This document shows, in pieces, positions 3,001 to 6,000 of a stretch of 20,211 nucleotides of DNA. The DNA comes from Candidatus Aenigmatarchaeota archaeon (lineage in GTDB: Archaea; Aenigmatarchaeota; Aenigmatarchaeia; CG10238-14; WAMV01): the NCBI GenBank assembly GCA_015522145.1, contig WAMV01000011.1, positions 1 to 20,211 of the forward strand, in the 5' to 3' direction. The stretch's first letter is position 1. Each line of letters begins with the position of its first letter. Position numbers: made by a program.

Positions 3001-6000
3001 AGAAGCATTTGATTAAGTTTAAAGATGTGGACTTCAGAAGACTTGAGCAAATAAAGAATTACGAATGGTTTAAGAACAATAAGAAATGGCAAGAACAATT
3101 TAAAAAGATGAAGAAGCTTGGGGCTAAAGCTGAGCTTGAGGCTTTAGCATCAAGAGGAATTACTTTCATAAGCGATGTTTACATACCGGAAAAGATTAAG
3201 AATGAGGACTTTTTGGATTAATTTTTTTATTTTATGTGTTATTGAATTTTATATTAAGCCCCGGTAGCTCAACGGGTAGAGCGCCCGGCTTGTAATCTGT
3301 GATTTATGAAAGCACGACGGTCACCTGAAGTTAAGATGAAGACAAGTGACCGGGAGGTTGTGGGTTCAAATCCCACCCGGGGCTTAAAATTTCTTTTTTA
3401 AACACATTAACCTCTATTTAAATTTTACGACGGTTGTTCAAGCTTAGGGAAAAGTTAATAAACTAACAAAAATGAGTTTTTGAGTATGATAGACAAAATA
3501 ACAAAAGACAAAAAAATGTTGGCAGCTGTTGCAGCAGTAGTAATTGTTGCTGTAGCAGCTGCATACTTCTTGGGCTACTTGCCTTTCTAGCCCCCTCTTT
3601 TTTAATTTTTTAACAAGTAAAAATTAGTTAATGGTATTTGTTGAATTTTTAGCCATAGCTTTAGTGATAATTTTGGGAGTTGTTGGAGATTATATTTTCA
3701 AAATTACAAATATTCCAGACATTATTTGGCTTTTACTTTTGGGTTTACTAATAGGGCCTGTATTCAAATTCATAGACGTTAGTTTGTTTGAAGCAGCTTT
3801 GCCTTATTTTACGGCTATAGCGATAATGATAATTCTGTTTCAAGGTGGTTTAGTAACTAATATTTACGTTTTGATAAAAGAATCTCCAAGATCTATGACT
3901 TTAGCTATTGTGAATCTTTTGCTATGCATGTTATTAGTTGCTGTAGTCATGAGTTTTTTTGGTTGGAATTTAATGGAAGGTTTATTGCTAGGGGCAATAC
4001 TCGGTGGTACTAGCTCGCCAATAGTAGTTGCCTTAACCTCAAGATACAAATTAAGCAAGAAACTAAAAACTCTTTTGAATTTGGAATCTACGCTTACTGA
4101 TGCTTTAACAATAATAGTTGCATTAACCATAGTGCAAATAATAGCTTTTGGCTCTTATTCTATAAGACAAATAAGCAATAGCTTGCTTGGTGGTTTTTCT
4201 ATAGGAGCAGTACTCGGTTTTGTTTTTGGAATTGCTTGGCTTGCTTTTCTCGAAAGAGAAAAAAAGCTAGAGTTTTCTTACATGCTTACCCTAGCGATGC
4301 TTTTAATTTTATACTCCGTTGTTGAAATGGCCGGTGGGAGTGGTGCAATGGCTGCTTTAATCTTTGGTGTTGTTTTGGCAAACGGGAAAGATATTGCAAG
4401 TATGCTAAAACTAAAAAGACATTTTAAAATTAGTAAAAACATAGAAAAGTTTCATCAAGAAATTTATTTCCTTGTAAAAACGTTCTTCTTCGTTTATTTA
4501 GGCATGCTAATAAGTTTGGAAAATTATTTCGCTGTAGCTATAGGCTTTTTGATTGCATTTGTAATTTGGTTAAGCAGGTTCATTAGCATAAAGCTATCTT
4601 TATACAAAGCTGGTTATAGCAAGAGGGAAATGATGTTTGCATCAACAGTTATTCCTAGGGGCTTGGCAGCAGCTGTTCTATCGCAAATACCTTTGCAGTA
4701 CAATTTAGCTAACGCTTCAACTTTTGTTAACGTAATAGTTTCTTCTATATTTTTCACCATTGTTTTTACAACTATTGCATCTTCCTATGCTTACAAGAAA
4801 TTTAATATAAACAACAAGTAAGTTTTAAATTATGCTAGAGATAAATGGGATTAAAATTCACTGGCTAGGACATGCAAGCTTTTACTTAGAGAATGATTTG
4901 AAAATTTACATAGACCCATATCAAATTTCTCCTAAGGAAAAAGCTGATTTGATTTTCATAACGCATGAACATTACGATCACTTAAGCCCAGAGGATTTGG
5001 AAAAAATTGTTAAAAAAGAAACCACAATAGTTGCAGCTAAAGAATGTGAAAGCAAGCTAGCAAGTTTTAATTGCGAAAAGATTTTTGTTGAGCCTTTTGA
5101 GGAAATTGAAGTTAAGGGTGTGAAAGTTAAAGCTGTGCCTGCTTACAACACAAACAAACCTTTCCATAAAAAAGAAGATGGAAAAGTCGGTTACGTAATA
5201 ACGGTAAAAGATGTTAGCATCTATCATGCTGGCGACACTGATTTTATAGAGGAAATGAATGATTTAAAGCCAAAGGTTGCTTTGCTTCCTGTTAGTGGAA
5301 CTTACGTTATGACTGCTGAAGAGGCAGCAGAAGCTGTAAAAGCAATAAAGCCTGGAATCGCTGTGCCCATGCATTATGGAACTATAGTTGGTAGTTTGGA
5401 AGATGCCAAAAGGTTTGAGGAATTAGCAAGCAAGTATTGTAAAGTTGTAATATTGGATAAAGAATAATTACTTTACAATAACAACGCTTAAATATTGGGT
5501 TAAGGTTTTAAACCTTAATTTTCAAAATAATTTTTAGAATGGTCCCCTATGCCAGAACAGCAAAGTCTTTGAAGATTAATTTTGTTTATTTGGGGCAATA
5601 GGGGATGATCCTTCTGGCCCAGAAGGGGACCATGCAACGTGGGCCGAAGTTTGTGATGTATGTGGTAAAGAAGCTAGCTTCTTCGAAATAATAAATAATG
5701 AGGTTGTTTGTGAAAGTTGTAAAGATTATTTTGATTTGAAAAATGAAGAGTATGATGATTCTATACATTGCTTAATATGCGATTGGCCGATAAACAGAGT
5801 TATTAAGAAAGATAAGGTTAATGAGTTTTGCTCAGGAATAATAAAATGGCTAGAAGCCAAGAAGATAAAGAATAGGGAAAAAATAATTGAAAAAATAAGA
5901 GCATTAATGAACAAAGATGCTTATCTTTGCAGGTATGATTTCTTTTACTTAATAAGAGATTTCATAAAAGAATACAACCCTAAAGCTGCTAAGGTTTTTG

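Follow-up and report, generated by a model that had tools for sequence, protein, structure and literature searches.

In archaeal sRNPs, L7Ae binds the kink of the guide RNA and recruits Nop5-fibrillarin. Guides of this kind also occur in tRNA introns, and those known from archaea act, in the literature searched, on their own tRNA only. The closest described system is the tRNA-Trp-type intronic guide, a 37/38 intron that targets position 39 of its host pre-tRNA and can act after excision; it carries four boxes and two guides (for positions 34 and 39) and has host tRNA targets only. Box C/D elements are also present in the tRNA-Met intron of N. equitans, a stable intron in a DPANN archaeon; the accessible part of its description names no target and proposes no rRNA target (PMC3491384). 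Likewise, the accessible parts of PMC3695527 and PMC6009581 add no intronic rRNA guide, and no tRNA intron aimed at rRNA was found in the openly accessible literature searched.

On the rRNA side, helix 69 of the 23S rRNA is described as a hotspot of predicted marks in the available sections of PMC4644070, the supplement of which predicts 23S C2186 as a target of S. acidocaldarius sR20 and I. hospitalis sR201; C2186 is read as E. coli C1920, as the same paper equates A2178 with A1912. Cm1920 has been assigned to N. equitans sR20 in a figure legend (PMC5389701, Fig. 5), which differs from the accessible 2015 supplement, where sR20 has no prediction (PMC4644070). These free C1920 sRNAs are stand-alone four-box RNAs with a second guide, located outside tRNA introns. 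Bacterial TlyA, a protein-only enzyme, accounts for Cm1920 and Cm1409. Here, a tRNA-Thr(UGU) intron from a Candidatus Aenigmatarchaeota archaeon is described that resembles the tRNA-Trp type in its 37/38 position and its position-39 target, but has one clear kink, one guide, and a putative second target in the 23S rRNA. This second target is the nucleotide that TlyA modifies and at which the guides of the free C1920 sRNAs are aimed; among the latter, S. acidocaldarius sR20 also has its guide before D' with a 12-nt spacing.

Host genome and machinery

The window analysed is the whole of contig C11 (WAMV01000011.1; 20,211 nt), part of a 323-kb partial assembly in 19 contigs (G000); order-level relatives have genomes of 0.4–1.7 Mb. 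Seven runs are listed for the contig, none of them an RNA run; four are labelled hydrothermal vent metagenome, all from one study, and one may be the source. EndA and RtcB, for splicing, and L7Ae are all encoded in G000. Nop5 and a true fibrillarin were not found in this partial assembly (one fibrillarin-type match is an isoaspartate methyltransferase), and FtsJ-family searches returned weak matches only, in G000 and four relatives. Across the order, Nop5 is present in 111 of 118 genomes, including 34/34 near-complete ones, and fibrillarin in 5/5 genomes tested. Of 12 ORFs around the nop5-fibrillarin genes of one relative (G002), G000 likewise lacks 11, those for ribosomal proteins L1, L10, and L12 among them; on this evidence, the lack of Nop5 and fibrillarin is most likely an assembly gap. 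The first-pass annotation had remarked that G000 has no 23S, and indeed the assembly contains no rRNA gene of any kind.

Architecture of the tRNA-Thr(UGU) intron

The tRNA-Thr(UGU) gene occupies positions 3258–3384 (Rfam RF00005, 61.7 bits) and, like all features of the locus, lies on the forward strand. Exon 1 (3258–3294; Rfam and ARAGORN) comprises tRNA positions 1–37 with the anticodon TGT at 3291–3293, and exon 2 (3349–3384) comprises positions 38–73, with no CCA encoded. The gene was missed by ARAGORN at default settings, while a relaxed threshold returned tRNA-Thr(tgt) with a 54-nt intron. This intron lies at 37/38 (3295–3348), so that the start of the previously annotated interval (3295–3349) stands and its last base is exon base A38. 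The splice sites are framed by a 3-4-3 BHB motif with flanking helices, composed of a central helix (3289–3292/3343–3346; 4/4 pairs, row L108), bulges at 3293–3295 and 3347–3349, and an intron-side helix (3296–3298/3340–3342). The promoter scan that was run used a sigma-70 model, which is unfit for archaea.

Within the intron, GTGATTT (3299–3305; a box D-like GTGA or an alternative box C) is followed by a box C-like ATGAAAG (3306–3312), a 7-mer that other tRNA introns of the order use as their C'. The guide ACGACGGTCA (3314–3323, guide positions +11 to +2) precedes box D' CTGA (3325–3328), a K-loop linker (3329–3335), and box C' ATGAAGA (3336–3342); on re-reading of the sequence, box C, guide, D', and C' were all found where they had first been placed. 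D' and C' form a kink-loop with U-A and C-G pairs, covarying in 48 orthologues. No snoRNA or sRNA family in Rfam matched the intron at E up to 10.

The degenerate box D of the first-pass annotation was not recovered as a usable element. The only candidate after C' is a GTGA at 3346–3349, 3 nt behind C' and split by the 3' splice site, so the linear intron has a box C-like element without an intact box D to form a terminal kink-turn, and 3 nt in which a second guide would have to fit. With no usable box D, the intron therefore has perhaps one kink only. The GTGA at 3299–3302 could face box C in a circular intron, with a G-A mismatch at the D1-C6 pair; alternatively, GTGATTT is a box C that pairs well with ATGA (3336–3339) in the splicing fold, at the cost of C'. 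Judged from these motifs, a second kink is doubtful. A guide across the circle junction (a 10-mer) reached at most 7–8 bp with G-U pairs, its best sites being 16S C1533 (4/9) and 23S 2610 (8/12), and is unsupported. By its motifs, the intron would behave as a box C/D guide but falls outside the four-box sRNAs. In the accessible parts of the two sources, activity was 0% for the C'/D' halfmer of M. jannaschii sR8 (PMC3001065, Table 2), and a single-site RNP was active with its site specificity lost (PMC1635284). As a putative natural one-kink guide, the intron makes site-specific methylation testable in a form other than the lab-made halfmers, which did poorly.

A class-wide guide to position 39 of the host tRNA

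Guide positions +1 to +7 (3324–3318) are complementary to GTG|ACCG (3346–3352), which spans the 3' splice site, and this 7-bp pairing, absent from the first reading, puts N+5 on C39 of the host tRNA (3350). The intron thereby carries the position-39 guide of the tRNA-Trp type; its position-34 counterpart was not found, as no box puts N+5 on U34 in the linear precursor.

Searched class-wide in 371 genomes, the pattern matched 84 times, in 81 of them; 75 of these loci were read and nine left out as other tRNAs by sequence. Parsing yielded 55 distinct Thr(UGU)-type intron genes, including that of G000. The best junction pairing fell at guide positions +2 to +7 with at least 5.5 of 6 in 49 of the 55 introns; in these, the best register, chosen blind to the boxes, was followed by an NNGA box in 49/49 and by C' in 48/49. 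The bulge dinucleotide is complementary to guide +2/+3 in 48/48 genes (seven different dinucleotides), N39 pairs with guide +5 in 48/48 (one G-U), and 45 of the 48 orthologous kinks have a Watson-Crick D1-C6 pair, though all of these counts overstate independence because the genomes are kin. Shifting the register in nine genes lowered the number of pairs from 53/54 to 6–15. Orthologous self guides usually span 6–9 bp, and most of the introns are 28–48 nt long with one kink, that of G000 being the longest. Its TG bulge is unusual (most other G000 introns end in AA), yet it complements the guide. An orthologue scan of JGI metagenomes returned 12 matches, none of them a tRNA and none resembling G000.

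These patterns point to a self-39 design that is class-wide and from which the D'-C' module of the intron appears to descend; guiding to C39 would then be the ancestral job and the rRNA target an addition. Duplex energies were −18.0 kcal/mol for the guide with helix 69, −12.3 kcal/mol with the unspliced junction, and −5.7 kcal/mol with the spliced tRNA. The BHB fold (−8.5 kcal/mol) and the self-guide fold (−9.9 kcal/mol) are mutually exclusive.

Complementarity to C1920 in 23S rRNA helix 69

Guide positions +2 to +11 are the complement of 23S U1917–U1926 and place G3320, as N+5, on C1920, identified by aligning the 23S of five relatives with E. coli rrlB. The pairing is entirely Watson-Crick over 10 bp, including the N+5 pair, in 18 of 20 relatives' 23S (the set does not contain the organism's own), includes one G-U in another, and is reduced to 8 bp in the last, so that the pairing first reported for six relatives held in 19/20. 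The 23S set consisted of the best 20 loci from matches in 28 of 41 genomes, and the 16S set of the best 20 loci from 29 genomes. Among 200,000 shuffled guides, 382 paired over 10 bp with a site present in half of the 23S or 16S loci. G000 contains 7,597 D-like boxes, of which 14 have a conserved 10-bp rRNA match and two of these also a C'; both of the latter lie in tRNA introns with an upstream box C. In the reversed genome, 1 of 6,288 boxes matched and had no upstream box C, this being the sole box-count control, as the ‘complemented’ control was identical to the ‘reversed’ one. Based on these matches, methylation of 23S C1920 is an activity that we infer for the intron.

The same guide recurs in the order. 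A loose guide pattern matched 17 of 118 genomes, with control matches similar in number, and 18 loci were then read. Five of the 117 other genomes (G006, G008, G025, G112, G113), one more than had been reported, carry the exact guide followed by CTGA within a four-box sRNA; in G025 the sRNA sits inside an insertion of the 23S. One further genome (G014) has a guide variant without a clear second half, and the remaining loose-pattern loci are chance matches. In the five four-box sRNAs, positions +2 to +11 are identical while +1, beside D', is free (C, T, A, G); box C lies 12 nt before D', the same spacing as in the intron; and the second guides are all different (16S 788, 23S 1774, and others). 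A GTDB-wide scan with guide and boxes gave six matches, five titled Ca. Aenigmatarchaeota and the sixth a bacterial chance match. A class-wide guide search was too loose to be informative (65 genomes matched, with many control matches). No second C1920 guide was found in the partial G000 assembly.

Other targets and origins were considered for the guide and rejected. At a helix 93 target (C2590), AGAACGT was present at the site in all 15 sequences printed of the 20 relatives' 23S, and the site had no rank in the 20-locus scan. Pairing to 16S reached at most 9 bp with G-U in 2/20 loci and was not conserved. The guide is not a copy of the 5' strand of the rRNA helix, as it carries A at the position of a G-U pair in helix 69. 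As separate observations, four of the 20 relatives' 23S (L001, L007, L013, L016) end just past helix 69 (near 1927), as an intron would give, and in these the C1920 guide site stops at the splice point; the C1920 sRNA of G006 (L095) lies within a cluster of box C/D-like RNAs, with a short inverted repeat on either side.

A 21-nt insert and its variation between strains

Alignment with the short self-39 introns of near relatives (G008, G005, and G117; relatives picked by TopoVI-A identity) shows that the G000 intron is equivalent to such an intron plus a 21-nt insert (3298–3318), indicating that a new guide target can arise through an insert of this size. The insert contributes GTGA, the box C-like element, and, at the 5' end of the guide, the four bases that match helix 69 but not the tRNA. 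In G008, the Thr intron shares the six-base core, and a four-box C1920 RNA is encoded separately. With +1 to +7 held fixed, 4 of the 1,024 possible fills of +8 to +12 give 10 bp at a conserved site, and 97/1,024 match at least one of 40 rRNAs. Among the other 54 Thr genes, one guide (shared by three sister genes) also reaches 10 bp to rRNA, with exon bases, so the background of such matches is not zero. The merged form was found in G000 and close strains only.

In a related strain (runs X4 and X5, from a second study), 18 of 107 upstream third codon positions are changed (17%). The intron of this strain has one substitution (3331 T>C) and one deleted base (3331 or 3332), both in the kink linker, the sole part of the intron with listed differences; the insert, guide, and boxes have no listed change. 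For the intron as a whole, at most two changes would be expected with P of about 0.003. Two of the 21 differences on the strain contig are unlisted, and conservation of the insert has P = 0.02 if it is truly unchanged and is not significant (P = 0.29) if both of these lie within it. On these figures the whole intron is conserved, and the insert alone weakly so.

Guides in other tRNA introns of the lineage

The tRNA-Ser(UGA) intron of G000 (C7:45452–45599, forward strand) is a four-box RNA that is kept in G002 (L235). Its D' guide matches 16S A1408 (9–11 bp with G-U in 19/20 loci, some of them partial 16S) and its D guide matches anti-Shine-Dalgarno C1535 (9 bp in four 16S loci). This is the same target pair region as that of N. 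equitans sR13, which, in the available part of the source, links A1408 and A1534, both marks having been measured (PMC5389701). Since the Ser(UGA) intron also targets rRNA, rRNA guides in tRNA introns recur in the lineage. In the G000 Leu(CAA), Lys(UUU), Arg(UCU), Glu(UUC), Met(CAU), and Trp(CCA) introns, N+5 falls on the tRNA's own base 34, and own-base-34 guides were found in many introns of eight sampled relatives, in which long tRNA genes only were sampled.

Further introns add to this picture. One-kink self-34 guides are spread over the order in many tRNA introns (G000 tRNA genes on C3, C5, C8, C10, and C19; L188–L243), and position-39 guides also occur in Cys, Tyr, and Lys(CUU) introns. 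The tRNA-Trp(CCA) gene in the window (6085–6196, forward strand) has two introns; in that at 37/38, a guide is aimed at C34 of the same tRNA and TTGA stands at 6154 without C', and a box C-like ATGAGAA at 6117 lies in the other intron, so the kink may be split over both. The tRNA-Gly(UCC) intron (G000 C10:15514–15639, forward strand; L197 in G012) has a conserved four-box layout, with a second guide matching 16S near 469 (9–10 bp, 4–5 of 9) and a first guide without a clear target. Four boxes and similar guides also characterise the tRNA-Ser(GGA) intron (G000 C7:1764–1907, reverse strand; L093 in G008), for which the candidate targets (16S 676 and others) are weak. A guide to 16S near 1203 occurs in a tRNA-Arg(CCU) intron in G012 (L195) and a tRNA-Thr(CGU) intron in G002 (L227), hinting from the sequences that guides may move between tRNA introns. 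On C12, near 22478 (reverse strand), a tRNA 3' half has no 5' half within 260 bases upstream and is possibly part of a gene with a long intron or of a split tRNA.

Proposed mechanism and alternative explanations

Our preferred reading, to which we assign a probability of roughly 0.55, is that one guide would serve two targets, host C39 and 23S C1920. L7Ae would bind the D'-C' kink-loop and recruit Nop5-fibrillarin. In the unspliced pre-tRNA, the guide would pair across the 3' splice junction and mark C39, in cis or by means of an already excised intron; because the self-guide fold excludes the BHB, this would precede splicing. Cutting by EndA and probable circularisation by RtcB would yield a free intron, able to pair over 10 nt with helix 69 and direct 2'-O-methylation of C1920. 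In origin, an ancestral self-39 intron may have received box C and guide, the 5' half of the C1920 sRNA of this lineage, in a merger made possible because A38-C39-C40-G41 of the tRNA reads like A1919-C1920-C1921-G1922. If the rRNA target is true, tRNA introns would contribute to ribosome biogenesis and so have grounds for being retained in very small genomes. Counting against two targets, the self pairing (7 bp) is shorter than the 9-bp rule applied to rRNA targets.

It is rather unlikely that the intron marks its own C39 only, as a one-kink particle that cannot act in trans, with an insert that is a recombination relic of the C1920 sRNA, or chance, and idle on 23S. The class-wide self-39 design, the absence of box D together with the halfmer data, and the chance-like 10-bp rRNA match of another orthologue would all fit this explanation, but it leaves the four extra bases that fit helix 69 and not the tRNA (4/1,024 fills) as an accident, along with the identity and spacing shared with the free C1920 guides. 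The insert also has no listed change in a strain diverged by 17% (P = 0.02 if there is truly none), and the partial assembly has no other C1920 guide. The converse, in which the intron serves C1920 only and the splice-junction pairing is a leftover, was the first-pass reading: its C1920 target is retained here, whereas the intron lacks the layout of a normal four-box sRNA, and its guide has kept the self-39 pairing, so that the rRNA target would be an addition. The stronger helix 69 duplex and the shortness of the self pairing speak for it; a length of 6–9 bp is nonetheless normal among orthologous self guides, and the unusual TG bulge still complements the guide, leaving this option improbable. 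Least credible is an intron that directs no methylation, with kink and pairings that would only time splicing, through an L7Ae switch from one of the two folds (BHB or guide) to the other, or act as an RNA chaperone, in a lineage that may have lost fibrillarin. The exclusive folds of similar energy and the absence of Nop5 and fibrillarin from G000 would suit such a role, but N+5 falls throughout on position 39, position 34, or known rRNA sites, and the distribution of Nop5 (111/118, 34/34 near-complete) and fibrillarin (5/5), with L1, L10, and L12 missing alongside, points to a gap in the assembly.

The two-target reading can be extended, tentatively and against the odds as we see them, to an excised circular intron that is itself the active particle (with one kink, or two permuted) and would mark its own pre-tRNA first and helix 69 afterwards. 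Together with the Ser(UGA) intron, splicing would in that case supply guides for both faces of bridge B2a, and a self-guide would be seen turning into an rRNA guide.

Gene neighbourhood

The tRNA-Thr(UGU) gene is preceded by genes for a KH-domain protein and for the B and A subunits of topoisomerase VI. Downstream, a 34-codon ORF (3486–3590, forward strand) encodes a hydrophobic stretch and has no Pfam match. Some 1.2 kb of other DNA separates this ORF from the end of the tRNA gene in runs X4 and X5, making the tRNA 3' end a possible insertion site. Farther along the window, adjacent genes for ribose-1,5-bisphosphate isomerase, type III RuBisCO, and AMP phosphorylase (7315–11249, forward strand) make up the archaeal AMP salvage pathway. 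The stretch that follows (11280–20040) consists mostly of minus-strand ORFs, with a T2SS-F domain in 18181–20040 as the sole NCBIfam/Pfam match, and this run may be an operon for a pilus or surface structure.
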